This document shows, piece by piece, positions 27,462 to 64,000 of a stretch of DNA of 64,000 nt; the first letter of the stretch is position 1, and each line of letters begins with the position of its first letter. Source of the stretch: Candidatus Krumholzibacteriota bacterium (GTDB lineage Bacteria > Krumholzibacteriota > Krumholzibacteriia > Krumholzibacteriales > Krumholzibacteriaceae); the NCBI GenBank assembly GCA_030667985.1, contig DAOUUU010000001.1:12020-76019 (forward strand). The letters run 5' to 3'. The notes under the pieces are model-generated. The model was not told the DNA's origin, did not search any database, and worked only from the letters and a program-made list of their open reading frames with translations. The translations under genes were made by a program, and so were the position numbers.

Positions 27462-27483
27462 ATGGCACCATCTCTTTTCTTTT

Positions 27484-31017: not shown

Positions 31018-31042
31018 GGGGAGAGGGGTGTGGTGACCGGGG

Positions 31043-32146: not shown

Positions 32147-32260
32147 CGGCCAATCGGGCCCAATCAGAGGTTGTAAGCGAGGAAGTTTTTATGTATTTTT
32201 ACGGAGTTTTCTAATAGAATCAGGTTCTGCGGGGTGCCGTATATGGGGTGTTGAAACGCT

Positions 32261-34476
<2,216 letters not shown>

Positions 34477-47503: not shown

Positions 47504-47534
47504 GGTGTCCCGGAGGGGAGACGGGAGAGGGCCA

Positions 47535-48437
47535 ATGGAACATGATCTGATAAAGACGGTCTGGCGCAAAGTCGTCCTGATGGACGGCGGCATGGGCAGC
47601 ATGATCATAGATGCGGGGATGCGCGAGGGGGACATACCGGAAGCCTGGGCTTTGAAGAATCCGGAGAAGCTATCAGCGATACACGCCGCCTATCTCGAAG
47701 CTGGCGCAGAGGTGATACAGACAAACACGTTCGGCGGGAGCAGGCTCAAGCTCCACTCCTCGGAGGCGGGCGCGAAGCTCGATCCGGTTGAGGTTAACAG
47801 GAAGGCAGCCGAGCTCGCCATCAAAGCGGCCAGGGAGCACGATTCCCGGGACCGCTTCGTTGCGGGGGACATCGGACCCACGGGGCTCTTCTTCCCGCCT
47901 GTCGGGCAGCTCGACGAGGAGACGGCGGTTGCCAGCTTCGAGGAGCAGGCGAAGACCCTGGCCGAAGCGGGAGTGGACCTGATCCTGATAGAGACGATGT
48001 ATGATATTCGGGAGGCGGTGGCGGCGGTGAAGGCGGCCCGAAAGGCGACCGGCATTCCGATAATTGCGGAAATCACCTTCGAGAAGAGACCGAAGGGGTA
48101 CTTTACGATGATGGGCGATACGGTCGAGAAGGTCGTCGAACAGCTCGAGGCCGTGGGCGCCGATGCGCTGGGCGCGAATTGCACGCTAACGAGCGAAGAC
48201 ATGCTGGGGCTCGTCAGCGAGTTCCGGGAGAGGACTGCGCTGCCACTCGTCTTTCAGCCCAACGCGGGCCAGCCGGCCATCGAGCACGGCAAGGCTGTTT
48301 ATCGCCAGGATCCTGAGGACTTCGCGAAGGATCTCGAGCTTATCGTCCGTGCCGGCGCGAACGCAGTCGGCGGCTGCTGTGGAACCTCGCCAACATTTAT
48401 CAGGGCGGCGCACGACAGGCTAACGCTTACCGGATAG
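47535..48437 (+). CDS. Homocysteine S-methyltransferase-domain protein (MetH N-terminal Hcy-binding module homologue)
   Basis: Pfam S-methyl_trans pattern VVLMDGGMGSMI, an ALGANCTL region (zinc Cys) and GGCCGTSP (zinc Cys pair) as in MetH/BHMT. Start at MEHDLIK; the ORF extends to 47505. Confidence 0.8.
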   Translation: MEHDLIKTVWRKVVLMDGGMGSMIIDAGMREGDIPEAWALKNPEKLSAIHAAYLEAGAEVIQTNTFGGSRLKLHSSEAGAKLDPVEVNRKAAELAIKAAREHDSRDRFVAGDIGPTGLFFPPVGQLDEETAVASFEEQAKTLAEAGVDLILIETMYDIREAVAAVKAARKATGIPIIAEITFEKRPKGYFTMMGDTVEKVVEQLEAVGADALGANCTLTSEDMLGLVSEFRERTALPLVFQPNAGQPAIEHGKAVYRQDPEDFAKDLELIVRAGANAVGGCCGTSPTFIRAAHDRLTLTG

Positions 48438-48516
48438 GCCCGGAACGGTTTTTCCATCACCGAGCAGAGGTTCGAGCCGGGAGAGGACTCATGCTCCTCG
48501 AACCGGGGGGTTCCAG

Positions 48517-49161
48517 ATGGATCCAGTGATCCAGAAAGATTTCAATATAGCGATCGAACCCAGGGAGGTGAAGCGCCTGCTCGGGTACGGGGAGGAGTCG
48601 GGCCGGGAACCGAGGGAACGCTTCGAAGAAGTCCTTGTCGAGGCGATCGAGCGGGCCGGCAAACTCGTATCGCCGGCTGGAATATATGTGGATGCATCGG
48701 GCGGGGATCTGCCCGGCTCGACCGTGTTCGATGGGCTGGAACGGGTCGCCTACTGTGTCTGCACGATCGGCCCCGAATTGGAGGGGGAGGTTTCGCGTTT
48801 GTCGGGCGGGGACGAGTTGCTTCGGGCGGTCGTCCTCGATGCGGCGGGATCGGTCGCCGCTGAGACGGTAGCGGAGTATATGGACCGGTCGATTCAGGAT
48901 ATGGCGGCAGCCGAGGGGTTGAAGACCTCCTGCCGGGCGAGCCCCGGCTATGGCGATTGGGATATTAGGGAGCAGCGGGCGCTTTTCGAGCTGGTCCCAG
49001 CTGGAAGGATCGGCGTACGCCTCAGCGAGAGCGCGATGATGATCCCGAGAAAATCAGTCTCATTCGCGATCCACATAGATGAGCACCCGGCCCGTATGAG
49101 ATCGGAGAACTCTTGCCGGAACTGCGATCGCACCGATTGCACCTACCGGCTTCTGGAATAG
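48517..49161 (+). CDS. MetH-type reactivation (AdoMet-binding activation) domain protein
   Basis: CRASPGYGDWDIREQRALFELV aligns with the MetH activation-domain motif RPAPGYPACPEHTEK..WELL. 214 aa. Confidence 0.5.
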   Translation: MDPVIQKDFNIAIEPREVKRLLGYGEESGREPRERFEEVLVEAIERAGKLVSPAGIYVDASGGDLPGSTVFDGLERVAYCVCTIGPELEGEVSRLSGGDELLRAVVLDAAGSVAAETVAEYMDRSIQDMAAAEGLKTSCRASPGYGDWDIREQRALFELVPAGRIGVRLSESAMMIPRKSVSFAIHIDEHPARMRSENSCRNCDRTDCTYRLLE

Positions 49162-49203
49162 ATGTGAAGTGAAGACAATGGACCAGAAAGGCGGAAAGAG
49201 AGC

Positions 49204-50664
49204 ATGAGCATTATCCCCCGTGTCACATGGTTCACAGAGGAAGACAGAAAGAGGGTAGTCGCCGAGGCTGTCGAGATACTGGAGAAGATCGGAGTCTTCG
49301 TAGAGAATGACGAAGCAATCGAGCTTCTCTCCGGGGCCGGAGCGCGGGTTGACAGGGACAAGGGCAGGGTCTTCATCCCCGCCTCCATGGTGGAGAAGGC
49401 CGTCGGATCGGCTCCCTCCCGCATCCTCGTCTACAATCGCCATGGAGAACCGGTGATGGATCTGGGTGAGGACCGGATCCATTTCAATCCGGGTTCCGCG
49501 GCTCTACGGATATATGATCATAAAAAGAAGAAGACCCGCACGCCCATGACCGCCGATCTCGTCCGGTTCTCGGCGCTGACCGATGCCTTGCCCAACTACG
49601 CCGCTCAGAGCACCGGTATCGTCTCCGGAGACGTTCCGGAGGAGATAGGGGACCGCTACCGGGTCTATATAGCCCTTCAGAACTCGGTGAAACCAGTCGT
49701 CACCGGTACGTTCTTGATCGACGCCTTCAGGGTGATGCACGAGATGCTCGCAACCGTCGCCGGCGACCAGGGCGCCCTGGCGGAGAAGCCGATGGCGATC
49801 TTTGACTGCTGCCCCTCGCCCCCGCTCAAGTGGAGCGACCTCACCTGCCAGGCGCTGATTGACTGCGCGCGTACGGGCCTCCCCGCCGAGCTCGTCTCGA
49901 TGCCCCTGACCGGGGCCACATCTCCCGTGACGCTGTCCGGCGCGGTCGTGCAGCATGCGGCCGAGAGCCTGAGCGGAGTGGTGATCCATCAGCTCGCAAA
50001 GGCGGGTGCGCCGATCATCTACGGCGGATCTCCCGCCTGCTTTGATATGCGCAAAGGGACGACGCCGATGGGAGCGGTGGAGACGATGATGATAGACGGA
50101 GCCTACGCCGAGATCGGCAAGCACCTCGGCCTTCCCACTCAGGCATACATGGCGCTGAGCGATTCGAAGCGGGTCGACTACCAGGCCGGAATGGAGAGCG
50201 CCATGGGTGCGGCCGTCGCCGCCCTGAGCGGCATCAACAACGTCTCCGGCCCCGGCATGCTCGACTTCGAATCCTGTCAGAGCCTCGAGAAACTCGTTCT
50301 TGATCACGAGATCGCCGGTATGGCGCTACGCCTTACCAGGGGGATCGCATTCAGGGACGATCCAATCGCGCTCCCGTTGATTGAAGCCGCCCTCGAGAAG
50401 AAGGAATTCCTGTCGCTGCCCCATACGGCTAAATGGTACAGGGAGGAGGCCTACTTCCCGAACGCAGTCATCGACCGGAGCACGCTGGAGGAATGGGAGT
50501 CGAAGGGGGGGCTGGACGCCACAGCACGCGCTTCCGAAAGAGTCGAGAAGCTCCTCTCCGATCACGAGCCGGAGCCGCTCGATGATGCGGTCCGCGCGCA
50601 CCTCACAGAGCTCATGGAGCGCGATGCGAAACGCTACGGTATGGACAAACTGCCCGTTACATGA
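49204..50664 (+). CDS. MttB-superfamily (trimethylamine methyltransferase family) methyltransferase, non-pyrrolysine member
   Basis: 486 aa. The N-terminus (TEEDRKRVVAEAVEILEKIGV) and TIM-barrel core are typical of MttB/MtgB-type substrate:corrinoid methyltransferases. There is no in-frame TAG. Confidence 0.75.
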   Translation: MSIIPRVTWFTEEDRKRVVAEAVEILEKIGVFVENDEAIELLSGAGARVDRDKGRVFIPASMVEKAVGSAPSRILVYNRHGEPVMDLGEDRIHFNPGSAALRIYDHKKKKTRTPMTADLVRFSALTDALPNYAAQSTGIVSGDVPEEIGDRYRVYIALQNSVKPVVTGTFLIDAFRVMHEMLATVAGDQGALAEKPMAIFDCCPSPPLKWSDLTCQALIDCARTGLPAELVSMPLTGATSPVTLSGAVVQHAAESLSGVVIHQLAKAGAPIIYGGSPACFDMRKGTTPMGAVETMMIDGAYAEIGKHLGLPTQAYMALSDSKRVDYQAGMESAMGAAVAALSGINNVSGPGMLDFESCQSLEKLVLDHEIAGMALRLTRGIAFRDDPIALPLIEAALEKKEFLSLPHTAKWYREEAYFPNAVIDRSTLEEWESKGGLDATARASERVEKLLSDHEPEPLDDAVRAHLTELMERDAKRYGMDKLPVT

Positions 50665-51961
50665 TCGCCGCCTTGAGGGCGAACTGCACGCGGATACTGT
50701 CGTAGTCCCGTTCCCTCGTATCGACCGATCCGCCGCTCATCGTTTTGTGGAGATAGGTCGTTTTGAGATAGGAGCCTTCGATCATCGCGGTGACATTCCT
50801 TGTGATGCTGTACATGAGATTTCCGAAGAGTACGGAATTCATGGTGATCATCGAGTGAGAGCTGTCGTCCGGGATGATGAAGTCCGAATCGTCCGGATTG
50901 TCGAAGCAGTACCCGGCGTTAAGCAGGGTTCTTTCCGCCGGGACGAGAGAGATCATCCCCCATCCGCCAGATGCTCCGAGCTCGTTGAAGGTGGGGCTGT
51001 AGTCCTGCAGGACGCCGCCGAAGTAGGTCGCGAGATTCTGTCCCATGAAGTACTCGCCGCTGATCGTCATCTTGTCTGTGAGCTTCAGCTTGAGATCGAC
51101 GTTGAAGGACCATGAGTCGAGCTCTCGTGTCGCATTGTCTACGAGCTCACCCATCTCGAATGTCTTGATCCTAGCCTTTTCCTTGCCGTAGTGGCCCGAG
51201 ACGCCGAGCCATGCGTGTCCCTGGCCGCCGAAACCGCTCTCGAACCCGAGGCGCCCCTGAACGGTCGGGAATCCGGCGGCGGAGCCGTCGTCATATCCGT
51301 CGCCCGTCTCACACTCCCCGTCCTCACAGATTATATCGAGATCGTGCGCCAGCGTCCGCGCGGCAGCTATTGCGGCTGTGACTTTCTTCGAGCCCATATC
51401 AGCCGTCCCGGTGAAGCGGAACTGCGGGCGCCGGTAGCCGATGTTACCCTGGCCCCAGCCGACCGTGTAGTTGACGGTCTTGGGAACGAGGGGGGAGATG
51501 ACGTCGCTCGTCTGGCCTGCGAGGATCGACCAGCAGCCCCTGGAGAGCTTGAGATATGCGTGGCGGAGCATCGGGGCGGCCTTGTTCTCCATTGAGATCA
51601 AATTCGAGGGAGCGGCGCCGAGTCCGTAGAAGTCGAACTCGAGCTTCGCGGCCGTCCGCCAGTCCTGCTCGATCCAGGCGAAATCGAATCCCAGCCTGGT
51701 CTCGCGGGCCGTCATATGTGTGGCGCTCCCCTCGGCATCCTCGAGCACTTTTATTGCGAAGTTGCCGGGCCAGGTGCGAAGCTCGTCAAAGGCGTAGTCC
51801 GCCTTGAAGTAGCCGCTAAACTTGAAGCTGTAGGAGGTGCACTTCTTCTCCTCTTCCTTCGCCTCGGCCTCGCCTTTCTTGAGCGTCTCGGCAGCGCCCG
51901 CTGGAATCGTCAGCGTGAAGGCCGTCAGGGCTATAAGGGCTGTCGATCGAAGCAGATTCAT
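50657..51961 (-). CDS. Outer-membrane porin-like beta-barrel protein
   Basis: Signal peptide (AGA-AE). 434 aa with alternating beta-strand pattern, many G/Y/F/D. Convergent with the MttB-family gene, overlapping by 8 nt. Confidence 0.5.
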   Translation of the reverse strand: MNLLRSTALIALTAFTLTIPAGAAETLKKGEAEAKEEEKKCTSYSFKFSGYFKADYAFDELRTWPGNFAIKVLEDAEGSATHMTARETRLGFDFAWIEQDWRTAAKLEFDFYGLGAAPSNLISMENKAAPMLRHAYLKLSRGCWSILAGQTSDVISPLVPKTVNYTVGWGQGNIGYRRPQFRFTGTADMGSKKVTAAIAAARTLAHDLDIICEDGECETGDGYDDGSAAGFPTVQGRLGFESGFGGQGHAWLGVSGHYGKEKARIKTFEMGELVDNATRELDSWSFNVDLKLKLTDKMTISGEYFMGQNLATYFGGVLQDYSPTFNELGASGGWGMISLVPAERTLLNAGYCFDNPDDSDFIIPDDSSHSMITMNSVLFGNLMYSITRNVTAMIEGSYLKTTYLHKTMSGGSVDTRERDYDSIRVQFALKAAIM

Positions 51962-52050
51962 GGTGTTCCTTCCTATGAAAGATCAAGAGTCGTTTCCAAC
52001 GCAACGTTCAGATTTATTTAGGAGATATCGCGAAGAATGTCAAACGTTTT

Positions 52051-53571
52051 TCAGTCGGACAGTTTCCTGTCGTAGAGTCGCCACGGGGGGATCTCCCGAA
52101 GGAGCGCACGTCCCGAGACGTGGTGACCGGCGAGCTTCGGGATGTTTCCTCTCGTGAGCAGGTAATCCATCTCTTCGTACCGGCCTTGGGAGCCGTCCGT
52201 CTTTCCGGCCCATTCCTTGTAGTGGGGGAGCCGCGCTCCGCCCGGCCTGCGCCGTACCGAGCCAAACCGGTAATCCACTAGAGAGGTTGCGGCGATTCCT
52301 CCCTTCCACACCGTGTAGTATGATGGGAAGTGAAGATAGACTGCATGGTTTCGGTACTCGTGATCCATGATGAGCCCGGCGAGCCTCCCGCCGGTCTTCT
52401 CCGGGGGAAAGAACGATGAATCGAAACCTTTGTTCTCTGAATCGAAGCCGGCGAAGTAGCTGGCCCAGAGGATGAGGTGAACAGCGGCTGCGGCTATATA
52501 GAGGGTCCTCGGGAGCGATCCGATCCCAGAACGTTTGACGCATGCGCCCAGAAACACCAGGGAGAGAAGCAGCAGGACGGAGAATCTTTGGTACAGGATC
52601 GTCTGTTGGGGGATCTCGTGCGGGAGGAGAAAGAAGCTGGCGAGCGAACAGGCGAAGAGGATAAAGGGAACCGACCGGACAAGTCTGCCGCGGTCCGATT
52701 TTCCGTGGGCGCGAATAAGGCTGATAACCCCGGGCGCGGCGATGGCGCAAGTCAGTGCCGAGCCCGCGAGGATCCCGTACCATTCCTTGTAGAGATGGTA
52801 GTTGTCGAGGAAGAGTATGTGAGCTCTCGGCAATATACTTTGAAAGAAACCGCCCGCATAGTAGACGGTCAGGAATCTGGCCAAGCCCTCTCCACCCTGC
52901 TGGGAACGCCACCAGACGACAAATAGCAACACGAGGGGCAGAGCTGGAGCGAGACGGGAGAGAAGCTCGAGAGGTCCGCCACGGGATCGGATCAGGCCGC
53001 AGACAACGAAGATCAGCAGCGCGAAGAGCGCCGCGAGGGCGTGGACGAAAAAGAGCGATACGAACAGAAGTGTGAGCAACGCTGTCTTGCCTGATCCTCC
53101 CTGTTCGAAGTATCCGACGAGCAATCCGGCGAAGAGCAGGACGAGGGAGATCGAGAAGAAGAATCCAACGAAGCCCCAGCTCACACTGTAGTTGTAGAGA
53201 AGCACGAATGCGGCGATCGAGTGCCAGTGGTTTCCGCCTGTCCGTCTCAGAAAAAACAGGGCCGAAAGCGGCAGGAGTAATATGTAGAGAGAGAGAAAGA
53301 CCCGGTTCGCGAACTCCACGGACGGAAAGAACTTCAGGCTGCAGAAGAGCGGGTGAAATACATTCGGACGGGGGAATAGCTCGATCTTGAAATAGTCGGA
53401 GAATGAGACGGCCGGATCGCTGTAGTGACGTATGATCGTCGCCGCTGCCAGATGATTGGGCAGATCGGTGAAGGGAAAGAGCCTCGTCGTCCAGATCATG
53501 ACGAGATGGAGCGCGATGAATCCGGCGAAGACCGGAACGAACCAGCATCTGTCGGATCTAGTGCTCAGCAT
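52051..53571 (-). CDS. Polytopic integral membrane protein with C-terminal periplasmic domain (GT-C-like / unknown function)
   Basis: At least 12 hydrophobic helices in the first ~400 aa. The overlapping ORF 52040..53548 in another frame is Arg/Pro-rich and rejected. Confidence 0.5.
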   Translation of the reverse strand: MLSTRSDRCWFVPVFAGFIALHLVMIWTTRLFPFTDLPNHLAAATIIRHYSDPAVSFSDYFKIELFPRPNVFHPLFCSLKFFPSVEFANRVFLSLYILLLPLSALFFLRRTGGNHWHSIAAFVLLYNYSVSWGFVGFFFSISLVLLFAGLLVGYFEQGGSGKTALLTLLFVSLFFVHALAALFALLIFVVCGLIRSRGGPLELLSRLAPALPLVLLFVVWWRSQQGGEGLARFLTVYYAGGFFQSILPRAHILFLDNYHLYKEWYGILAGSALTCAIAAPGVISLIRAHGKSDRGRLVRSVPFILFACSLASFFLLPHEIPQQTILYQRFSVLLLLSLVFLGACVKRSGIGSLPRTLYIAAAAVHLILWASYFAGFDSENKGFDSSFFPPEKTGGRLAGLIMDHEYRNHAVYLHFPSYYTVWKGGIAATSLVDYRFGSVRRRPGGARLPHYKEWAGKTDGSQGRYEEMDYLLTRGNIPKLAGHHVSGRALLREIPPWRLYDRKLSD

Positions 53572-53654: not shown

Positions 53655-54566
53655 TCAGCCGATCTCGATCATACGCTCGATCGACGAGAGTGCGAGCCCT
53701 GCTACATCGGGAGCTACCCTTATGATGGGTTCGAGCGCTTCGAGCGAGGAGAGGATCTTCTCGAGCGAGATCTTTTTCATGTTCGGGCAGACGGCCTGCT
53801 TTGAGGCGGCGATGAAGTACTTTTCGGGGTATAGCTTTTCGAGGCGGTAGACCATTCCGGTCTCTGTTCCGACGATGAAGGTCTCCGCGTTGCTCTTGCT
53901 CGCGAATCTTATCATCCCGCCCGTTCCGAGAATCTGGTCGGCGACGCCGGCCACTTCGGGATTCACCTCGGGGTGGACCATAACGACCGCGTCCGGGTTT
54001 TCTTTCCGGAGCTTCTCGATCTGTTCGGGGAATATCTTCTGGTGCGACGGGCAGTACCCGTTCCAGACGATCATCTCCCTGTCCGTTTGGCTCCGGACCC
54101 AGCCGCCGAGGTATTGGTCCGGGCCGAAGATGATCCTCTTGCCATTGGGAATCGATTCAACGACCTTGACAGCGTTCGCCGAGGTGCAGCAGGAATCGGT
54201 ATGCGCCTTGACCTCGGCGGTCGAATTGATATACATGACGACGGCAGCATCGGGATGGTCCTTCTTGAGCAAGACGAGATCGTCGGCGCTAAGCATGTCG
54301 GCCATCGGGCAGCCGGCAGATGGATCCGGCAGGATGATCTTCTTTTCGGGTGACAGGATGGCTGCGGTCTCCGCCATGAAGTGGACGCCGCAGAAGATGA
54401 TGATCCGTTCTTCGATTCGCTGGGCGAGGCGGCTCAAGTCGAGCGAATCGCCAAGGTGGTCGGCGATATCCTGTATTTCGGGAGGCTGATAGTTATGGGC
54501 GAGGATCACCGCGCCCCGGTCCTTCTTCAGCCGCCGTATCTTCTCTGCGAGTTCCCGTTTCGCCAT
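53655..54566 (-). CDS. nadA: Quinolinate synthase NadA
   Basis: NadA pattern including ILAHNYQ, three Cys for the [4Fe-4S] cluster, 303 aa. Confidence 0.9.
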   Translation of the reverse strand: MAKRELAEKIRRLKKDRGAVILAHNYQPPEIQDIADHLGDSLDLSRLAQRIEERIIIFCGVHFMAETAAILSPEKKIILPDPSAGCPMADMLSADDLVLLKKDHPDAAVVMYINSTAEVKAHTDSCCTSANAVKVVESIPNGKRIIFGPDQYLGGWVRSQTDREMIVWNGYCPSHQKIFPEQIEKLRKENPDAVVMVHPEVNPEVAGVADQILGTGGMIRFASKSNAETFIVGTETGMVYRLEKLYPEKYFIAASKQAVCPNMKKISLEKILSSLEALEPIIRVAPDVAGLALSSIERMIEIG

Positions 54567-54582
54567 CGGCCGTCCCCTCCGT

Positions 54583-55164
54583 TCACTCGTCCTTGCTCAG
54601 GTCGGCGCTGCAGTGTGGACATGCGTTCTCGCTCGTCGCGGCTAGTTTCCCGCAGGATGGGCATTCGACGAACTGTATTTTGCAGCTCCTGCAGAGCGGC
54701 GGCGTTTCGTCGAGTTGCGTGTCGCAGTAGGGGCAGTTATCGACATGCTCCTTCTTGTGCGGATGAACCTTTTTTTCGACAGGCTCACCCGTCTCCAGCC
54801 GTTTGCGGTAGTCCTTGATCGCCTCGTGGAGGGCGTCGGCCCCGAGGTTGGAGCAGTGGAGCTTGTTCTTGGGAAGCCCGCCCAGCTGCTCGGCGACCAT
54901 GTCGTTGGTGATCTCCATCGCCTCGTCGAGCGGTTTGCCTATGGCCATCTCGCTTACCATGCTAGAGACGGCGATAGCGGCGCCGCAGCCGAAGGTCTTG
55001 AACTTGACACCCTCAATGCGATCGTCCTTGACCGTTATGTAAAAGGTCATCATGTCCCCGCAGACGGGGTTTCCAACCTCGCCCACGCCGTCGGGCGTAT
55101 CGATCTCCCCGACGTTACGCGGGTTCATGAAGTGATCCATCACCTTGTCACTGTAGAGAGCCAT
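54583..55164 (-). CDS. nifU: NifU/IscU-type Fe-S scaffold with C-terminal double zinc-ribbon extension
   Basis: The N-terminal ~125 aa are an IscU domain (NPRNVG..D..G.VGNPVCGDMM, KFKTFGCGAAIA, CSNLGADAL). The C-terminal ~60 aa carry CPYC, CRSC, CPSC and CPHC. Confidence 0.8.
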   Translation of the reverse strand: MALYSDKVMDHFMNPRNVGEIDTPDGVGEVGNPVCGDMMTFYITVKDDRIEGVKFKTFGCGAAIAVSSMVSEMAIGKPLDEAMEITNDMVAEQLGGLPKNKLHCSNLGADALHEAIKDYRKRLETGEPVEKKVHPHKKEHVDNCPYCDTQLDETPPLCRSCKIQFVECPSCGKLAATSENACPHCSADLSKDE

Positions 55165-55165
55165 C

Positions 55166-56341
55166 TCATTTCCTCTTGTAAAGTGGTGACATCTCGCGCA
55201 GGCGCGAGATGACGGGTTTCATTGCATCTATTACTCTATCGACATCTTCGATCGAATTGTCAAGCCCAAGAGTCATGACGATTGAACCCTGAGCGGTCGC
55301 CGCGTCGAGACCGATCGCCTCGAGGACATGGCTTCCCTTGAGCGACTTCGATGTGCAGGCGGAGCCGCTCGCCGCCATGACGCCCATCTGATCGAGAAAG
55401 AGCAGCAGTCCCTCCCCCTCGATATACTCTACGCAGAAACTGGCGTGGCCCGGCAGCCGTTTCACCGGGTGGCCGGTCGGGATTACATCCTCGATCTCGG
55501 CCGGCAGGCGCGAGATCAAAGCATCGCGTATCGGTTTGAGCTTTCCGGCGCTTTCCTTCAAACGCTCCGCGGCTATCTCGGCCGCCTTGCCCAATCCCGC
55601 GATTGCGGGGATGTTTTCCTGTCCAGCCCTGATTCCCCGCTCCTGAACACCGCCCGTGATGATCGGCTTCGGCCTGACACTTTTCTCAATGACCAGTGCG
55701 GCGGCTCCGGGCGGGCCGCCGAAGTTCTGGCCGGCGAGTGTGAGTGCGCTTATACCGGAACCGGTCATATCTATGGGGATCTGGCCGGCTGCGCCCCAGG
55801 CGTCCGTGTGGAACGGAACCTGGTGCTCGCGGCAGAGCGCCGCCAGCTCGTCGACCGGCTCGAGCGTGCCTATCTCGGTGCTCGCGTAAATGACTGAGAC
55901 CATGGCCGCGCCCTTTTCCAGTTCCGCAGCGAGGGAATCGCGCGAGATGAACCCCTCCCCGTCGACAGGCAGGGTCACGAGTTCGAACCCCTCCCTCGTC
56001 AGGGCTTTAGCCGGCTCCAGGATGGAGTGGTGCTCGATCGAGGAGACGATGATCCTGGCTGAGGCCTTTTTTCTGGCGCGGGCTATCCCCAGTATCGCGA
56101 GGTTGTTCGCCTCTGAGCCGGACGCCGTGAAGATGACCCCGTCGGGATCGGCGCCTACAAGCCCCGCCACCTTCTCGCGCGCGGCCAGGAGGACGTCGGC
56201 GGCACGCTGGCCTCTCGCGTGAACGCTCTGAGGATTGCCGAAGCCGCTCATAAGGAGCAGTTTCATCACTTCGACAGCCTCGGGAAGGACCGGCCCGGCG
56301 GCTATATGGTCCAGATATATCTCTTTCTCTTTTTTTATCAT
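55166..56341 (-). CDS. iscS: Cysteine desulfurase NifS/IscS
   Basis: PLP-dependent class V aminotransferase pattern. The active-site Cys lies in the SGSACTS region; 391 aa. Confidence 0.9.
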   Translation of the reverse strand: MIKKEKEIYLDHIAAGPVLPEAVEVMKLLLMSGFGNPQSVHARGQRAADVLLAAREKVAGLVGADPDGVIFTASGSEANNLAILGIARARKKASARIIVSSIEHHSILEPAKALTREGFELVTLPVDGEGFISRDSLAAELEKGAAMVSVIYASTEIGTLEPVDELAALCREHQVPFHTDAWGAAGQIPIDMTGSGISALTLAGQNFGGPPGAAALVIEKSVRPKPIITGGVQERGIRAGQENIPAIAGLGKAAEIAAERLKESAGKLKPIRDALISRLPAEIEDVIPTGHPVKRLPGHASFCVEYIEGEGLLLFLDQMGVMAASGSACTSKSLKGSHVLEAIGLDAATAQGSIVMTLGLDNSIEDVDRVIDAMKPVISRLREMSPLYKRK

Positions 56342-56660
56342 GGTTTTACCCCGCTATGTAAGGTGCCCTTCAGGAAGAACAGGCAGAAATACCGACAATT
56401 GTTATCAGGAATAATCTATTTGGATATCCCCCGTAATGCAAAGAAAAAACATGCTTGCGCTTGATCGGGCAAGCCGGGATGCCTCGTTCGTCCAGGCATC
56501 AGGACATCATTATATTATATATATAAGCGTTTACAAAATCCCTTAAGATAAAAAATTTAGTGGAACTATTGTAAGGAATTATTTTATAATAGAATATTGG
56601 CCTTCGAGCCTATTCATAATTGCGTAATACAACATGTTAACCCTATTGGGAGGGTATTGT

Positions 56661-57743
56661 ATGGACATGCGTGTGAAGTATGTGGCCCTTATCCTGCTGG
56701 GCGCGTTTCTCCTGGCCGCAGTCGCTCTGCCGGCCATGGCCGACGAGAAGTCGAAGAAATTTCCGAAGTTCTTCACTCCCAAAACGGCTGTGGAGGTCGG
56801 CGAGTTCATCGAGGGCAAGGATATCGAGTATACCTTCATTGTTAGAAATCATGGACTCGCGGAACTGCATATCAACAGTGTGAGGCCTGGCTGAGGCTGC
56901 GCGGTGGCCGACCATGACAAGGTCATCCCTTCCGGGTCGGAAGGAAAAATTTCAGTCAAGATCAACGGGCACAAGATACACCCCGGACGCTTCAAGAAGA
57001 GCTGGACGGTGAGCACGAACGATCCCGATAACAAGCGGCTGGTCCTCTATGTCGGCGGCTCGGTCAAGAAGGTCTTCGAGTTCTCGGGACAGCTCTCCAT
57101 GTCCGGGTTCAGGGATGAGGAGATGGAGGAAGAGATGATCCTGACCAATCTTCTCGACGAGCCGATCAACATAAAGGGATGGAGTTGGGACGAGAAGTCG
57201 GCCAAAAGGGGCATCGAAGAGAAGATCGGCATCAAGCTCGACGTGGTGGAGCAGGGGCGGAAGTACAAGATCTCCGCCTGGAAGAGATCCGGGGTCAAAC
57301 CCGAGCATTACAGGGGCGAGATCGTTCTCGAGACCGACCATCCGGAAATCAAGGAGAAGAAGATCGGTGTCAGGATGACGGTGACTCCCGATGTCGAGGT
57401 TCATCCGAACAAGGTCTATTTCGGCGAGATGATCGTCAAAGAGGGCGTGAGTAAGAGCTTCGACCGCCAGATCCGCATCATCGCGTCGAGGAGCGACACC
57501 CTCAAGATATTGAAGGTCGTCCCGGACAGCGATGAGATAACGGTCAAGATCCAGGAGGTGCAGGCGGGAAAGGTCTACAAGGGAACCGTCAGCGTGAGGC
57601 CCCCGTCGAAGGTGGGTACCTACCAGGGGAGCATCAAGATCTACACGAATTATCCCGGGTACGAGGAGCTGATAGTCGTGGTCGCGGGCGCGATACGTCA
57701 ATCGTCGCAGGCTACGAAATTCAAGGATAAGAAGCGCCCCTGA
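56661..57743 (+). CDS. DUF1573-family secreted protein interrupted by a single in-frame TGA (56892-56894): candidate selenoprotein, or pseudogene
   Basis: ORFs 56634..56894 and 56904..57743 are in the same frame, separated only by TGA GGC TGC GCG. The joined product has a signal peptide (AMA-DE) and the DUF1573 pattern. In that pattern the conserved R-[AS]-S-C-G-C-T motif reads R-P-G-TGA-G-C-A. Start is the ATG at 56661 after GGGAGGG. Confidence 0.55.
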
Positions 57744-57828
57744 GCGGCGTTGTAACATATAACCGTAATCGGGTGCGCACTTCGATGAAGGGCGCGCCCG
57801 ATTCATTGTAGAGAAAGGCATTGCCGAT

Positions 57829-58740
57829 ATGAAGCTGCGTATGATAACGGGCACGCTGATACTACTGCTTTTCGCCGGAGCCCTCGACGCGTTCGGTGAT
57901 TCGGCGGCCGAATTCGAGCGGATGATGGCCGAGCTGCTTCAGAAGAAGCAGCAGGTCGATCCTCAGGAGTTCTTGCTGGTCGCCGAGCAGCGCATGACCG
58001 ATTTTCTGGAAAAATATCCCGACTCGCCCGAAGCGGCCGATGTTCACCTGAACCTTGGACAGCTCTTCGCCCAGGCGGGATCTCCCGATAGGGCCGTCTC
58101 TCATCTCGAGATCTACCTCGAGCACAGCGTGGGCAGGATGCCGGTGGAGGTGGCGGTGGCCAAGTTCTTCCTGGCGCAGGGGTACATAGCCCGGGACGAA
58201 TTCGACAAGGCAGAGCTGTATCTCCAGGAGGTGCAAGCCTCGGGGGATGCCGCCCCATTGCAGCTACGGCAGATGACGGAGATGTCGATCCAGAGGATAC
58301 CGATCCTCAAAAAGCTCAAGATAGGCAACCCGGCCCTGCCGATCGACGCCGAGACGACCGCCGGAGACCGGATTGCACTCGGATCCTACAGGGGCAAGGT
58401 GCTGTTGGTCGATTTCTGGGCTAGCTGGTGCAAGCCGTGCAGGCAGGAGATGCCGACAGTGAAATCTGTTTACAAGGAGTTCCACGAAAAGGGATTCGAG
58501 ATACTCGGAATCTCCCTGGACCAGAGCGAGGCGAGCTTTGAGGGCTACATAGAGGAGCAGGGCATAACCTGGCCCCAGATCTTCGACGGCAAGGGATGGA
58601 AGAGCTCCGTTGGACAGCGGTATGGGATCAATTCGATTCCCGCGACATTTCTGATCGACCGAAAAGGCACGATCAGGTACAGGGACCTGCGCGGCGACAA
58701 GCTTCGGGAAGCGGTGCGGGAACTCATCGAGTCAGGGTGA
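57829..58740 (+). CDS. TlpA/ResA-like thiol:disulfide oxidoreductase (thioredoxin fold) with N-terminal helical-repeat domain
   Basis: C-terminal thioredoxin domain with the WCKPC active site (LVDFWASWCKPCRQEMP). N-terminal TPR-like region and signal peptide. Confidence 0.8.
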   Translation: MKLRMITGTLILLLFAGALDAFGDSAAEFERMMAELLQKKQQVDPQEFLLVAEQRMTDFLEKYPDSPEAADVHLNLGQLFAQAGSPDRAVSHLEIYLEHSVGRMPVEVAVAKFFLAQGYIARDEFDKAELYLQEVQASGDAAPLQLRQMTEMSIQRIPILKKLKIGNPALPIDAETTAGDRIALGSYRGKVLLVDFWASWCKPCRQEMPTVKSVYKEFHEKGFEILGISLDQSEASFEGYIEEQGITWPQIFDGKGWKSSVGQRYGINSIPATFLIDRKGTIRYRDLRGDKLREAVRELIESG

Positions 58741-58761
58741 TCTGAACGAATCAGATTTTTC
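58740..58761 (+). terminator. Short rho-independent terminator after the thioredoxin-like gene
   Basis: A 6-bp stem ATCTGA-ACGAA-TCAGAT followed by TTTTT. Confidence 0.4.
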
Positions 58762-58773
58762 TGAAAAAAATCT

Positions 58774-58800
58774 TGACACTTTCCCGCGTCTGTGGATAAT
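58774..58800 (+). promoter_or_regulatory. Sigma-70-type promoter (TTGACA-N16-GATAAT) overlapping a perfect DnaA box TGTGGATAA
   Basis: TTGACA at 58774-58779, GATAAT at 58795-58800, and TGTGGATAA at 58791-58799. It lies about 120 nt upstream of the 58919 operon. Confidence 0.45.
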
Positions 58801-58918
58801 TACGTCTTGTATTTTATTGGGTTGGGTGGTTGTCCGGGGTGAAAATCTCAGTAAAAACAGGCGACTTCAGATTGGCTCTTCGTTCAGTAGTGCAGCCATT
58901 TTCATAGATAGGGAATAG

Positions 58919-59971
58919 ATGCACTTTATCGACTCGACAAATTTTGAGAGGCTTTTGAAAAAGCTCTCTAGCGAGGGAGAGCTTTTTGTTCCTGTCCGGA
59001 ACGAAGAAAACGGCAAGCTCTCGCTCTCGCGCGTGGATGCCTTCCCGCTTGACGAGAATGTCTGTTTCGACGGATATCGGACCGTCGAGCCTCTCAAGGG
59101 CTTTGCCCAGTTCCTGAGGTCTCCCGTCGCCGAATACCCGTCGGCGGACAGTGACGAGATGGCCGATCCGGATGGTTTTCCCGACTATATAGTCGTGGGC
59201 GCGCGCGCCTGCGATGTCAACTCCCTCGAGCTCATCGACAGGATCCAGGTCGAGGGCGAATTCATCGATCCTTTCTACAAGATACGGCGGGACAAGTTGC
59301 TTTTGATAGCCGCCGATTGTTCCGAGTGCGGCGATAGCTGTTTCTGCACGCTGCTGGGGAATAAGCCGTGGCCGGAAAAGGGCTTCGATCTATCTATCGC
59401 AAAAGTGAGCGGCGGATTCGTCGTCGATATCGGTTCGGACCGGGGGACGGCGGTATTCGAGGAGAACAAGGATCTCTTCACCGAGACCCGAGAAGGCCAG
59501 ATCAAGGCGAGGGATGAGATCAGGGAAAGGGTCGCCAGCGAGCTCGAACAAAAGAACAAGGACTTTCCGGCTGCCGACAAGCTTCCCGAAATACTCAGGG
59601 GAGCTCTAAACGACGAGGTCTGGGACGAGATCGCGGCGCACTGCGTTGAATGCGGAGCCTGCACGAACATCTGCCCGACCTGTTACTGCTTCCTGTTGTT
59701 CGACCAGAAACTTGACGGGGAACATTTTCAGCGGGTCCAGAGCTGGGATTCTTGCCAGGTCACCGGCTACGCCCGGATGGCTGGAATGCTGAATCCGAGG
59801 CCCAGGCTCACGGACCGGGTCAAGCACCGTTACTATCACAAGTACGATTATCTCGTGTCGAGTCACGAGGCGATCTACTGCACCGGATGCGGCAGGTGCA
59901 TCGATACCTGCTCGGCCGGTATAGACATGCGTGAATCCTTTAAAAAGGTGAAAGAGAAAGCAAAAAGGTAG
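58919..59971 (+). CDS. Fe-S subunit, AsrA/sulfhydrogenase-beta (HydB)-like
   Basis: Two ferredoxin-type cysteine motifs (CVECGACTNICPTCYC and CTGCGRCIDTCSAG). 350 aa. Confidence 0.65.
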   Translation: MHFIDSTNFERLLKKLSSEGELFVPVRNEENGKLSLSRVDAFPLDENVCFDGYRTVEPLKGFAQFLRSPVAEYPSADSDEMADPDGFPDYIVVGARACDVNSLELIDRIQVEGEFIDPFYKIRRDKLLLIAADCSECGDSCFCTLLGNKPWPEKGFDLSIAKVSGGFVVDIGSDRGTAVFEENKDLFTETREGQIKARDEIRERVASELEQKNKDFPAADKLPEILRGALNDEVWDEIAAHCVECGACTNICPTCYCFLLFDQKLDGEHFQRVQSWDSCQVTGYARMAGMLNPRPRLTDRVKHRYYHKYDYLVSSHEAIYCTGCGRCIDTCSAGIDMRESFKKVKEKAKR

Positions 59972-60804
59972 TGAAAGCGGAACAAATGAAAAACCCGTAC
60001 TACCCAATAGACGCGGTCATCGAGGAGATCATCGAAGAGACACCGACGATCAAGACGTTCGTGCTGAAGCCGGCACGGCCGATCGAGTTCCGCGCGGGGC
60101 AGTTCATGCAGCTGACCCTCCCGGGTATCGGCGAAGCGCCCTTTACACCGAGCTCGTCTCCCAAGGTGACCGAGAAGATGGAGATCACGATCCTTCGGAC
60201 GGGCAAGGTGACCGACGCCCTCCACGAGAGCGAAGCGGGCGCGAAGGTGGGACTCAGGGGACCTTTCGGCAAGGGATATCCGCTCGACAAACTCAAGGGC
60301 AAGGAGGTGCTCCTCGTTGGAGGAGGCGTTGGCCTGGCGCCCCTGCGCTCGCTGATCCATGCTCTGCTCGACAAGCCGTCGGACTACAAGCGGATCTCGA
60401 TAAAGAACGGAGCGAGGCTTCCCGAGGAACTCTGTTTCAATGACCAGTACGATGAGTGGGGCAATGCCGCTCCGAACGTGGATTTCACCTGCACGATCGA
60501 TACTCCCGCGTCTGGATGGGAGGGCAAGGTGGGCCTCGTTACGACGCTGCTCGATAATCTCGACATCGACATAGAGAATAGCATAGCGCTCTCCTGCGGG
60601 CCGGAGATAATGCTCAAGTTTGTTACCCTGAAACTACTGGAGGTTGGTTACAAGCCTCCTCAGATCTACCTGTCGATGAATCGCAAGATGTCGTGCGGCA
60701 TGGGCAAGTGCGGGCGCTGTAACGTCGGGCACTACTATCTCTGTGTCGACGGCCCCGACATGTGTTACGACAAGATCAAGCACGTACCGAACGTGTTCGG
60801 ATAA
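59971..60804 (+). CDS. FAD/NAD(P)-binding oxidoreductase subunit with C-terminal [2Fe-2S] (AsrB/HydG/PyrK-like)
   Basis: Flavin-binding RAGQF region, a GGGVGLAP NAD(P) fold and a C-terminal CGMGKCGRC...C cluster. Confidence 0.7.
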   Translation: MKAEQMKNPYYPIDAVIEEIIEETPTIKTFVLKPARPIEFRAGQFMQLTLPGIGEAPFTPSSSPKVTEKMEITILRTGKVTDALHESEAGAKVGLRGPFGKGYPLDKLKGKEVLLVGGGVGLAPLRSLIHALLDKPSDYKRISIKNGARLPEELCFNDQYDEWGNAAPNVDFTCTIDTPASGWEGKVGLVTTLLDNLDIDIENSIALSCGPEIMLKFVTLKLLEVGYKPPQIYLSMNRKMSCGMGKCGRCNVGHYYLCVDGPDMCYDKIKHVPNVFG

Positions 60805-60846
60805 ACCCGGACGGCCCAGGCCGGGCCGTGTAACCGGAGAAGAGAT

Positions 60847-62619
60847 ATGAGAGAGATCAAAGGAAACTGTTCGTTTTGCTCGCTCGCCTGCCCCCTCGTC
60901 TTCAGAGGCGGCGGGAGATCGCCGATGTTCGGGAGCGAGTCCCTCCTGACCCTCGATTGGGACACTGGTGAGGGCTCGAAATACGGAGGGAGCCTCTGCG
61001 CCCGCGGCAGCGCGGCCGTGGAGTTCGTATCGCATCCGGACCGTATGAACTATCCGTGGATCCTCGGTGAACGCTCGGTCATGCATGCTGCGGTCAGCGA
61101 AACGGCGAAAAACCTGATTGCTATAAAGGAAGAATTCGGAAGCGACAAAATCGGTCTTCTGATCGGCGATAACTTGACGGTTGAAGAGGCGTCGCTGGCG
61201 CGCATGTTCGCAAAAGAGGTTCTCGGGACCGAGAACGTAGCTCTCTTCGCGCCGGATGATATGCCGATCTTCAGGGGCTACACCGGCTGTGACCTCTCCA
61301 GCGTGAAAGCTTCGGGCGCCAAGCCGGAGGGCGACCGTGAAGTCGCACTTATCGTCGGGGATTCGTTCGCGGACCATCCCTGCACGGCGAAGCTGGTTCT
61401 GCCGGGCAAGTACGGAACGCGTGGTAGCGAGATCATCGTCATCTCTCCCGAGCGCGGCAACACGGCCTGGTTCGCCAACAGGCACCTCAGGTGCGCGCCC
61501 GGCGGCGACACGGCTGTTCTGGCAGGGCTTCTCAAGGCTCAGCTCGAAAAGGGAGCCGGTAGTGTGCCGGCCGAATTCCAAAAGCTGGTGGAGGGTTTGA
61601 GCTGGAACGAGATCGAGAACCTCTCCGGCGTCGGCAAGGATCAGATGGTCCTGGCGGCCGAGTCGATGCTCGGCGCTGCGAAAGTAAGAACATACGTATC
61701 CAATATATACGGTCGTTTCGGCAATCCGGCACTCTCCGTTCTATTTGCCGAAGCGGTGGCGCGCCTCTGCCCGGGGCTCGAGACCTTCACGCCTCAGTTC
61801 GTTCAGCAGAACACATGGGGTGTCTATGCGGCCCTCGCCGGCACGAACAGCAGCGACGTGATCGAAAAGCTGAGCAAGGGAGAATTGAAAGCGCTCATAA
61901 TACTGGGACTCGATATATTCAGCGCCTCTCCGGCCGCGCCGGTCGAGAAGGCCCTGCGAGAGAAGAAATTCACAGTTACGACACAACTGTTCTGGAACCA
62001 GACCGCATCCCGGGCCAACGTTGTGATCCCCGCGGCGGCACTAGTGGAGAAGAAGGGGACGGTATGGCCCGAGTTCGGCGAGGATTTGAAACGGGACGGC
62101 CTGCTCGAATCACCGGGAGGAACTATAAGCGACGCGGGTTTCCTGAAGCTCCTGTCGAAAGAGATGGGCACAGAGCTTGGAGAGCCGCCGGCCGTCACCG
62201 AACCGGCCAGAAGCGGTTCCTGCGACTGGGTGGTCCTCGAGTGGAGTTCCTACGCGGGGCTGCTCAAGGAGCTCAACCTCGCAGATACGGTGCTTATACC
62301 CTGGAGCGATCCGGTCCATGTAGGCGACGGGTCCTTGAGCAGGAAGTTTCATTGGTCTCACATGTCGAGGCCCGAACCGGTGCTCATGGTTTCGAACGAG
62401 CTGGCCGATTCTTTGGGGCTCGATGACGGCGATACGGCGACCGTAACCTCGAGCGCCGGCGAGGCGGCTTTACAGATACAGAAAACTGACAAGCTGTCGG
62501 GAAAAGTGGTTGGAGCCACGATTCACTTCCCGAAGGTGCGCAAGCTCTTTCCCTGGAAGCTGGACGAGAAGACGGGGGAGATATGCCTGGCGCCGATTTC
62601 TGTGAAGGTCACCCGGTAG
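60847..62619 (+). CDS. Molybdopterin oxidoreductase catalytic subunit, FdhF-like formate dehydrogenase (Cys-type)
   Basis: The N-terminal CSFCSLAC motif is a CxxCxxxC [4Fe-4S] site. MopB domain; Cys in SLCARG at the position where Sec occurs in Sec-FDHs. No internal stop. Confidence 0.75.
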   Translation: MREIKGNCSFCSLACPLVFRGGGRSPMFGSESLLTLDWDTGEGSKYGGSLCARGSAAVEFVSHPDRMNYPWILGERSVMHAAVSETAKNLIAIKEEFGSDKIGLLIGDNLTVEEASLARMFAKEVLGTENVALFAPDDMPIFRGYTGCDLSSVKASGAKPEGDREVALIVGDSFADHPCTAKLVLPGKYGTRGSEIIVISPERGNTAWFANRHLRCAPGGDTAVLAGLLKAQLEKGAGSVPAEFQKLVEGLSWNEIENLSGVGKDQMVLAAESMLGAAKVRTYVSNIYGRFGNPALSVLFAEAVARLCPGLETFTPQFVQQNTWGVYAALAGTNSSDVIEKLSKGELKALIILGLDIFSASPAAPVEKALREKKFTVTTQLFWNQTASRANVVIPAAALVEKKGTVWPEFGEDLKRDGLLESPGGTISDAGFLKLLSKEMGTELGEPPAVTEPARSGSCDWVVLEWSSYAGLLKELNLADTVLIPWSDPVHVGDGSLSRKFHWSHMSRPEPVLMVSNELADSLGLDDGDTATVTSSAGEAALQIQKTDKLSGKVVGATIHFPKVRKLFPWKLDEKTGEICLAPISVKVTR

Positions 62620-62633
62620 AGAGAGAAAAGATA

Positions 62634-63113
62634 ATGGAGAAGAGAGTCTACATAAACATGAACCTGTGCACCGGCTGCCGCTCCTGCGCTGCGGCATGCG
62701 CCCAGGGGCATCACCAGCAGGGACTTCTCAAGCACGGGGCGGTTCAGGAAGCGGCTATGCTGCCGATGCACTGCAGGCATTGCGACACGCCCCTCTGCCT
62801 CGAGGTCTGTCCCCAGGAAGCGATCAAGAAGGACGAGAACGGGACGATAGTGCGGATGACGCACCTCTGTATCGGCTGTAAGTCCTGCATCATGTCCTGC
62901 CCCTTTGGCGTCATGTTCATGTATTCCGTGTGGCACGTTTCGCCGAAGTGCGATCTTTGTCACGACCGACTCGAGGAGGGCAAGGAGCCGCGGTGCGTGG
63001 CGACCTGCACCTCGGGAGCGCTCGTCTTCGAGGAACTGACCGAGCTGGAGAAGAAACAGAAACGAGCGGTAGAAGGCGGCAGGTATTACGCCCGGTTCAT
63101 GCTCAACCGTTAG
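62634..63113 (+). CDS. 4Fe-4S ferredoxin-type electron-transfer subunit (HycB-like)
   Basis: Four CxxCxxCxxxCP-type clusters (CTGCRSCAAAC, CRHCDTPLCLEVCP, CIGCKSCIMSCP, CDLCHDRL..C). Confidence 0.8.
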   Translation: MEKRVYINMNLCTGCRSCAAACAQGHHQQGLLKHGAVQEAAMLPMHCRHCDTPLCLEVCPQEAIKKDENGTIVRMTHLCIGCKSCIMSCPFGVMFMYSVWHVSPKCDLCHDRLEEGKEPRCVATCTSGALVFEELTELEKKQKRAVEGGRYYARFMLNR

Positions 63114-63125
63114 CGGAGAGATGAA

Positions 63126-64000
63126 ATGCTGGATCCTATTTACATAGTCTATTACCTGATTTTTCCCGGTTTCCTGTTCACGGCGGTAGCGGGGCTCTTG
63201 ACGACCTGGGTCGACCGGAAGGTCTCGGCGCGTGTGCAGTGGCGCGTAGGGCCGCCCTGGTTCCAACCCTTCGCCGACATGATAAAGCTGCTCGGCAAGG
63301 AGGTCATCGTGCCCGTGGGCGCCAGGAGAACCGGATTCCTCCTATGGCCCGTTGTGGGATTGGCCGCGGCCACGCTGGCCTCGATGATTCTTTGGCTCTC
63401 GAATCTCTGGCCCGGCACGTCGTTCGTGGGAGACACGATCGTGGTTATTTATATAATGACGATACCGGCGATATCGATGATCCTCGGAGCCAGCGCGTCC
63501 TCTAACCCCCTGGGGATAGTGGGCGCGAGTAGAGAGATGAAACTGCTTTTTGCCTACGAGCTCCCTCTGGTCATCGCAGTTCTCACCACCATATACAAGG
63601 TCGGCAGCTTCTCCTTTCAGGCCGTGCTAGCGCACCAGGCCCAGGAGGGGGTCATGCTGGGGAGCGTGTCCGGCGTGATTGCCTTCATAGTCGCGATATT
63701 CTGCACCCAGGCAAAGCTGAACCTCCTGCCCTTCGACATACCAGAGGCGGAAACGGAGTTGGCGGGCGGCTCGCACATCGAGTACTCGGGCGCCGCTCTG
63801 GCGGTGGTGAAGCTCAACATGGCGATAATGTTTTTTGTCATGCCGGTCTTTCTCATCACGGTTTTCTGGGGCGGGATAGCATTTACCGGCTGGCACATTC
63901 TGACTTCGATCCTCAAGTATGTGGCGATCGTGGTCATTCTCGTTTTGATAAAGAATACGAACCCGAGGGTTCGTATAGACCAGGCGGTCCGTTTTTTCTG
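63126..64000 (+). CDS. Membrane subunit of formate hydrogenlyase / group-4 hydrogenase (HycD/HyfC/NuoH family), 5' part
   Basis: Runs to the window end without a stop. NuoH/HycD motifs RKVSARVQWRVGP and P.QPFADMIKL.GKE, and multiple TM helices. Confidence 0.8.
   Translation, partial: MLDPIYIVYYLIFPGFLFTAVAGLLTTWVDRKVSARVQWRVGPPWFQPFADMIKLLGKEVIVPVGARRTGFLLWPVVGLAAATLASMILWLSNLWPGTSFVGDTIVVIYIMTIPAISMILGASASSNPLGIVGASREMKLLFAYELPLVIAVLTTIYKVGSFSFQAVLAHQAQEGVMLGSVSGVIAFIVAIFCTQAKLNLLPFDIPEAETELAGGSHIEYSGAALAVVKLNMAIMFFVMPVFLITVFWGGIAFTGWHILTSILKYVAIVVILVLIKNTNPRVRIDQAVRFF

Follow-up and report, generated by a model that had tools for sequence, protein, structure and literature searches.

Two open reading frames of the window (the whole 64-kb stretch of DNA analysed here) share one frame and are separated by nothing but TGA-GGC-TGC-GCG. 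They occupy positions 56634..56894 and 56904..57743. Do they represent two genes, one broken gene, or a single gene in which UGA is read as selenocysteine (Sec)? An earlier note favoured the last of these. It described an exported DUF1573-family protein of about 360 residues, with UGA in place of the first Cys of a conserved C-G-C motif. The arrangement of reading frames that it reported agrees with both the sequence and the translation. In our view, the locus very likely holds one gene, for an exported DUF1573 (OS_HP2) selenoprotein. The features of the gene are as follows.

56661..57743, + strand: probable selenoprotein coding sequence, complete, 360 codons, Sec at codon 78 (translation, Pfam and NCBIfam matches, homologue alignment)
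56648..56654, + strand: GGGAGGG, Shine-Dalgarno-like, 6 nt 5' of ATG 56661 (sequence reading)
56661..56741, + strand: predicted signal peptide, residues 1-27, cleavage AMA/DE (ALPAMA then DE; by eye from the sequence)
56892..56894, + strand: UGA, probable Sec codon (U78), position 1 of the U-G-C motif (aligned with Cys of PGCGC; TGA and TGC counts)
56898..56900, + strand: TGC codon of Cys80, the partner of U78 (translation)

Translation from ATG 56661 meets a single internal stop in 56661-57743, at codon 78 (...LAELHINSVRPG*GCAVADHDKVIPSGSEGK...). The residues around it read HINSVRPG*GCAVADHDK. With U replaced by C, the Pfam family PF07610 (DUF1573) spans the stop, matching residues 41-135 at 64.3 bits (E=1.1e-17; gathering cut-off 26.1 bits). 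Hence, the match passes the Pfam cut-off and C-G-C is present as U-G-C, so that the family assignment made in the earlier note is upheld. The expected length was also right, at 360 codons, and residues 1-27 look signal-like by eye. The same note was also right about the family motif, given as RASCGCT; Bacteroidota DUF1573 proteins read VRASCGCT or VRSSCGCT.

The AF2 model of a homologue (P0028; pLDDT 87) consists of three beta-sandwich domains, in which CGC forms a 4-residue inter-strand turn. The top structural match to the model was an uncharacterised protein, and a PDB sequence search with the DUF1573 protein gave no match. The product would thus be an exported protein of three domains, the first being DUF1573, with export predicted from the sequence. 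The joined protein contains one cysteine, C80. Since this is the sole Cys, the partner of U78 must be C80, unless U78 and C80 jointly bind something.

To read the codon in relatives, we searched for protein homologues using the joined sequence as query. Of 85 homologues, about 75 were fragments of 270-297 aa (46%-100% identity) that correspond to the region 3' of the TGA only, or about 75% of the query. Those fragments that were aligned start at a V or M codon three codons past the TGA, the point at which gene callers resume. Nine of the 85 were full length (354-378 aa) and placed PGCGC exactly opposite PG-TGA-GC of the window. Cys homologues of 358-363 aa were colinear with the joined protein along its full length. 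We then retrieved 78 metagenome loci and read the codon at the Sec position directly. It was TGA in 44 gene copies, on 39 contigs (28-91% identity), and TGC in 30 gene copies; deduplication left 31-33 distinct TGA forms and 24 distinct TGC forms. Over the domain, the TGA forms are 33-91% identical to the window; they make up several sequence clusters, which are interleaved with Cys clusters. Paralogues stand in tandem on several contigs (Sec+Sec or Sec+Cys), and on one, L029, the order is Sec-Cys-Sec. TGA also stands at this codon in a Logan assembly made independently (L010), which encodes 100% identical proteins, and in a JGI contig (L044), where the proteins are 87-91% identical. A scan of genome contigs returned distant Bacteroidota Cys forms as the only relatives. 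The earlier note had suggested a search for relatives with either Cys or UGA at this site. Both kinds exist, and their numbers, together with the PGCGC alignment, fit the Cys/Sec exchange that it proposed.

We also considered how TGA is used elsewhere in the window. Of 42 window genes, 18 end in TGA, among them the gene under study and its TlpA-like neighbour. A reassigned UGA, read as Gly or Trp, is thereby excluded. When further ORF pairs joined by TGA were sought throughout the window, the yield was out-of-frame noise only. We are confident that UGA at codon 78 encodes selenocysteine.

Insertion of Sec by SelB calls for attention to the mRNA 3' of the UGA, where two helices can be drawn.

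56904..56926, + strand: helix 1, GUGGCC (56904-09) paired with GGUCAU (56921-26), 11-nt loop (pairing in Sec versus Cys forms)
56928..56944, + strand: helix 2, CCUUCCG-GGU-CGGAAGG, best SECIS candidate (folding, five variants, Sec versus Cys contrast)

The RNA alignment contains 31 distinct Sec-form segments without gaps, and column n equates to window position 56885+n. Helix 2 was assessed by folding columns 40-62 alone. A hairpin of 6-8 bp formed in 33 of 33 distinct Sec forms, at -10.5 to -14.1 kcal/mol. The same segment of the 24 Cys forms averaged -6.5 kcal/mol and had no common structure (Mann-Whitney p=1e-9, which overstates independence because the sequences are related to each other). 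Counted in one register for all sequences, pairing of helix 2 amounts to 94.6% in Sec forms versus 43.8% in Cys forms. Five variants of the stem occur. The majority have CCCUCC/GGAGGG, while the window and L044 have CCUUCCG/CGGAAGG. The remainder are CCUUCC/GGGAGG (L011, L014), CCUCCU/AGGAGG (L048, L055) and CGCUCC/GGAGCG (L072, L077). In the window, CCC>UCC, a Pro-to-Ser change, is offset by a synonymous GAG>GAA. Column 54 is a third codon base in codons for Q, K, S, T, R, A or G; every Sec form has G there, which is not true of the Cys forms. With the register fixed, column-wise analysis of covariation identified no pair changed on both sides. Support for helix 2 hence comes from folding of individual sequences, from register-shifted variants and from the contrast between Sec and Cys forms, in a set of phylogenetically related sequences. 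RNAalifold preferred a long hairpin that has the UGA in its stem and the CCUCCC segment as its 3' strand, which excludes helix 2.

For helix 1, pairing was found in 98.9% of cells in the 31 Sec forms versus 79.2% in the 24 Cys forms. It shows no covariation, and its fourfold-degenerate sites hardly vary in Sec forms, unlike in Cys forms. The third-position entropy for Sec and Cys forms, respectively, is 0.19 versus 1.18 at V+4, 0.37 versus 0.95 at A+5 and 0.00 versus 1.00 at V+10. Codons +4, +5, +10 and +12 have reduced synonymous variation, again in Sec forms only.

The earlier note had drawn two hairpins 3' of the UGA, and both occur at the coordinates that it gave. Only that at 56928-56944, our helix 2, has comparative support. 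The other, ATGAC-AAG-GTCAT (56914-56926), was rejected as a conserved element; it is present only where codon +7 ends in T, and helix 1 is what is conserved in this segment. We conclude that a Sec-specific structured element of approximately 45 nt exists, of which helix 2 is the best supported part. Binding of SelB to it is putative. The apical loop of helix 2 carries GG and starts ~38-40 nt past the UGA. Models of bacterial SECIS elements (bSECISearch) cover a range of 16-37 nt. The distance is hence at or beyond the long end of that range. Rfam contained nothing relevant, either for the whole window at gathering thresholds or for 56850-57010 at E<=10.

A textbook case of SelB-dependent recoding is the E. 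coli fdhF SECIS, with a spacing of ~11 nt. As in fdhF, an in-frame UGA is followed by a stem-loop within the coding region that has G in its apical loop, and helix 1 starts 9 nt past the UGA. Unlike fdhF, the strongest comparative signal here is a second helix with its loop ~38-40 nt from the UGA; Rfam gave no match, and SelB binding is putative at this locus. The Cys forms of PF07610, whether Bacteroidota proteins with VRASCGCT or PGCGC paralogues of 358-363 aa, have the same fold and the same motif position. They differ in having Cys for Sec, in being without helix 2, and in reading I-A-P-G where the Sec forms have I-P-P/S-G.

We next asked if Sec machinery is encoded nearby. No selA, selB, selD or tRNA-Sec was found in the 64-kb window. 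ARAGORN, applied to the window and 37 related loci, detected no tRNA-Sec and only one tRNA-Gln on each of L072 and L077. Pfam searches of the 30 window ORFs of Sec-machinery size identified MnmE, MnmG, an HflX-like protein and others; no SelA, SelB or SelD was among them.

These data allow other explanations of the in-frame UGA to be weighed. Sec machinery was not seen in the 64-kb window, as would be expected if UGA were simply read through, whether by reassignment to Gly or Trp or by a near-cognate Cys or Trp. However, TGA ends 18 of the 42 window genes, the gene itself and its neighbour among them, and the position aligns with Cys rather than Gly or Trp. Furthermore, the hairpin specific to Sec forms would have no role. 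We regard plain read-through as improbable. It is less probable still that two true genes are present, encoding a 77-aa exported peptide and a 279-aa protein made from GTG 56904. The GAGG created by UGA-GG is Shine-Dalgarno-like and sits 7 nt 5' of this GTG, and the 279-aa product is present in databases. Against this, the split would fall in the middle of a beta-sandwich domain (Pfam match 41-135; AF2 model), the second product would be without a signal peptide, and full-length Cys homologues are colinear with the joined protein.

The last of these explanations is a pseudogene or assembly error, in which a nonsense change from TGC to TGA cuts the protein short. Gene callers do give products of 77 and 279 aa. 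Conversely, the TGA is present in 44 copies that span 28-91% identity and many independent assemblies, and so does not trace to one clonal sequence; the frame is intact on both sides, and the RNA helix is conserved 3' of the codon. Recurrence of TGA in 44 homologous copies and in independent assemblies excludes chance, sequencing error, a recent nonsense mutation and a pseudogene, and we assign this explanation a negligible probability. The view of the earlier note, that neither a frameshift nor a nonsense mutation is involved, is thus sustained by conservation of the TGA across clusters and by the Sec-specific hairpin. A single selenoprotein gene is the reading that we carry forward.

What, then, might the selenoprotein do? 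The adjoining gene is informative in this respect, and two further features are needed.

57829..58740, + strand: exported TPR plus TlpA/ResA-like thioredoxin-fold protein, WCKPC (Pfam, NCBIfam; conserved downstream gene)
57768..57803, + strand: strong hairpin in the intergenic stretch that separates the selenoprotein gene from its TlpA-like neighbour (folding of 57740-57830)

The TlpA-like protein scores 87.4 bits with AhpC-TSA, 76.5 bits with Thioredoxin_8 and 74.7 bits with Redoxin in Pfam. NCBIfam places it as ResA/TlpA-like, with scores below the ResA and TlpA equivalog cut-offs. It has a thioredoxin fold, a WCxxC motif and the marks of an exported protein, including an N-terminal signal-like segment read from the sequence. 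WCxPC is kept in its orthologues. On 27 retrieved contigs the DUF1573 gene or genes have a TlpA-like gene downstream of them, and the DUF1573-then-TlpA pairing is retained in relatives at 25-28% identity (L048-L053). The assignment of the next gene as a TlpA-like thioredoxin-fold protein, made in the earlier note, was therefore correct on account of the Pfam and NCBIfam matches, WCKPC and the conserved pairing. Gene order beyond the DUF1573-TlpA pair is visible on longer contigs. Briefly, the conserved order is NadA-NifU-NifS (minus strand), one to three DUF1573 genes, the TPR-TlpA-like gene, an AsrA-like gene, an AsrB-like gene and a molybdopterin oxidoreductase. At Bacteroidota DUF1573 loci, no TlpA-like neighbour was detected at E<=1e-5. 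The region between the two genes of the window (57740-57830) folds at -37.5 kcal/mol (z=-4.26), and no T-run follows the intergenic hairpin.

The mechanism that we propose is as follows. Translation would start at ATG 56661. At UGA 56892-56894, Sec would be inserted by SelB and Sec-tRNA(Sec), with SelB recruited by the downstream mRNA structure, namely helix 1 and, above all, helix 2. The product would comprise a 27-residue signal peptide, cleaved on export, and three PapD/ASH-like beta-sandwich domains. U78-G-C80 would sit in a tight turn that joins two strands of domain 1, where U78 and C80 could form an intramolecular selenenylsulfide/selenol-thiol couple of the CXC type. This couple may be cycled by the co-encoded exported TPR-TlpA-like thioredoxin by means of WCKPC. 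The data show that the gene is continuous, that its UGA stands at the Cys position and is conserved, that an mRNA helix is specific to the Sec forms, and that the gene is paired with a TlpA-like gene. We infer dependence on SelB, incorporation of selenium, export with cleavage of the signal peptide, the redox partner and a substrate for the couple.

Because U78 and C80 are the only Sec and Cys residues, an intramolecular couple is the most likely chemistry. We give a U-G-C redox couple cycled by the TlpA-like protein roughly an even chance. Analogies can be drawn. The Ig-fold domain DsbD-alpha works with thioredoxins of the CcmG/TlpA type, and CXC or Cys-Sec redox motifs are found in Erv2 (C-G-C) and thioredoxin reductase (GCUG). 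Like DsbD-alpha, the window protein would be an exported beta-sandwich with a close redox pair and an adjoining TlpA-like partner. No homology to DsbD-alpha, Erv2 or thioredoxin reductase was detected, and the likeness would be functional. The next best option also takes the gene to encode a selenoprotein. Here, U-G-C would be a ligand for a soft metal, such as Cu(I), and the TlpA-like protein would keep the pair reduced. TlpA is known to reduce the copper chaperone ScoI in Bradyrhizobium. Such a role is consistent with U78 and C80 being the sole Sec and Cys residues, in an exposed turn, with conservation of the TlpA-like partner gene, and with a non-enzymatic Ig-like beta-sandwich fold that has no catalytic relatives. 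However, no metal-handling genes are adjacent. Both chemistries fit the observations made at this locus; we treat metal binding as a tentative second choice and the redox couple as the preferred chemistry. The DUF1573-TlpA pairing and the single U/C pair provide a concrete and testable functional hypothesis for DUF1573.

A broader interpretation can be built on the redox couple. It combines an atypical two-helix SECIS, with a SelB loop ~38-40 nt from the UGA that forces I-P-P/S-G-x-E-G on the protein, a new periplasmic selenol redox relay made up of a U-G-C Ig-domain protein and a dedicated TPR-TlpA, and tandem Sec/Cys paralogues that serve as alternatives for selenium-replete and selenium-limited conditions. 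Taken jointly, this whole interpretation is speculative and we think it unlikely to be correct in full.

The earlier note had supposed that DUF1573 is not a recognised selenoprotein family. This does not hold. Two reviews of prokaryotic selenoproteins include a DUF1573 domain-containing protein, PF07610, with the motif UGC (PMC9312934, PMC13188914). The source of the entry is Zhang & Gladyshev 2007 (reference 63 of PMC9312934), who found six new families, OS_HP2 among them, in the metagenome of Olavius algarvensis symbionts (PMC1976440). At that time OS_HP2 had two Sec members and no Cys homologue (PMC1976440). The position of the DUF1573 row matches that of the OS_HP2 row in the table of PMC1976440, between the COG1810/DUF166 family and OS_HP3. 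Consistent with this, the best NCBIfam match of the window protein is NF041425, 'OS_HP2 family (seleno)protein' (89.1 bits, E=1.9e-25, model positions 5-98 of 98). Since the reviews and NF041425 already cover DUF1573/OS_HP2, known with its U-G-C motif since 2007, the claim of an unrecognised selenoprotein family fails.

The curated cut-off of NF041425 is 100 bits, and the window protein falls below it at 89.1 bits. Nine other members of the clade, in both Sec and Cys forms, match the model over its full length at 86.8-98.2 bits (E 1e-25 to 1e-28). By these scores, the window clade is a close sister of the curated OS_HP2 set, just outside the NCBI naming rule. Shared with OS_HP2 and NF041425 are DUF1573, U-G-C with Sec first, C-G-C in Cys homologues, and a stem-loop 3' of the UGA. 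The window protein differs in having 360 aa and three domains and in its probable origin in Krumholzibacteriota, whereas OS_HP2 is from deltaproteobacterial symbionts. What is modestly new is a three-domain clade, probably from Krumholzibacteriota, in which a TPR-TlpA-like gene always comes next and which public databases consistently divide into two ORFs. A search of the literature on Krumholzibacteria and selenium found nothing useful.

The split has a simple origin. Gene callers cut at the Sec codon, and hence about 75 of the 85 database homologues are stored as anonymous fragments of 270-297 aa. Because the clade lies below the NF041425 cut-off, NCBI records are left as 'hypothetical protein' fragments; these are assigned to MAGs of Candidatus Krumholzibacteria, Krumholzibacterium or Eisenbacteria. 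With a lower cut-off for NF041425, or with an added sister model, a considerable number of selenoproteins would be regained, probably from Krumholzibacteriota-like MAGs. The value of our analysis is mainly in correcting annotation, and the count of selenoprotein families is not increased.

The surroundings of the locus can also be described. By eye, the translations at the ends of the window are PdxA-like and NuoH/HyfC-like proteins. The window covers the region of the replication origin; dnaA, dnaN, recF and gyrB lie to one side, and yidC, jag, mnmE, mnmG and rsmG to the opposite side.

The motif of the selenoprotein gene is followed by different residues in its two forms. Sec forms, with TGA at the motif codon, continue I-P-P/S-G-x-E/G-G (window 56925-56945, alignments A2/A4). 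In Cys forms, the same segment reads I/V-A-P-G-x-x-G (alignments A2/A4). One arm of helix 2, the SECIS candidate, is the Pro codon CCU. RNA structure thus appears, from these alignments, to constrain the protein sequence past the motif.

The UGA also influences annotation. An SD-like GAGG arises from UGA-GG, 7 nt upstream of GTG 56904 (window 56892-56906). Probably because of this, gene callers restart at GTG 56904. Database homologues of the joined protein are mostly fragments of this restart type (about 75 of 85, 270-297 aa; protein search, hits P0001-P0083). The whole clade falls 2-13 bits short of NF041425, the NCBIfam model for the OS_HP2 family.

Gene order is kept between window 53655-64000 and the metagenome loci L016-L038, as follows.

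First in the order: NadA-NifU-NifS (minus strand)
After NadA-NifU-NifS: DUF1573, then the TlpA-like gene
After the TlpA-like gene: AsrA-like Fer4_22 protein, then AsrB-like FAD/NAD protein
60847-62619, after the AsrB-like gene: divergent molybdopterin oxidoreductase
Last, extending past the window end: NuoH/HyfC-like membrane protein

The N-terminal GSLCARG segment of the molybdopterin oxidoreductase carries Cys, not Sec. A very stable hairpin, AAUCGGGUGCGC...GCGCGCCCGAUU (57768-57803), lies between the selenoprotein and TlpA-like genes. Folding of 57740-57830 gave -37.5 kcal/mol (z=-4.26). Since no T-run is found 3' of the hairpin, its candidate roles are those of a terminator, attenuator or mRNA stabiliser.

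In the window, the DUF1573 gene occurs once, as a Sec form. Two or three paralogues stand in tandem on fourteen related contigs (L017, L018, L019, L020, L024, L026, L029, L031, L034-L037, L039 and L040). Their arrangements are Sec+Sec, Cys+Sec or, on L029, Sec-Cys-Sec. Such tandem Sec and Cys paralogues may be alternatives for selenium-replete versus selenium-limited conditions.

Elsewhere, the window contains the chromosomal replication-origin region (20122-34476), and the sign of GC skew switches at ~28 kb. The genes of this region are listed below.

Within 20122-34476, minus strand: rsmG, mnmG, mnmE, jag, yidC
28166-29542, plus strand: dnaA
Within 20122-34476, plus strand: dnaN, recF, gyrB

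A methyltransferase cluster was also observed at 46859-50664.

47505-48437: homocysteine S-methyltransferase
48517-49161: Met_synt_B12 match (methionine synthase activation domain)
49204-50664: MttB-family methyltransferase, 486 aa

The MttB-family gene has no in-frame TAG. Hence, its product is of the non-pyrrolysine type. Three long ORFs (426, 434 and 502 aa) had no Pfam match at E<=1e-5.

40329-41609, 50657-51961 and 52040-53548, all minus strand: Pfam-less long ORFs

In keeping with an FCB-group or Krumholzibacteriota-like origin, to which the source names of the database homologues also point, a 607-aa protein (37191-39014) weakly matches the Por_Secre_tail (T9SS C-terminal sorting) domain.
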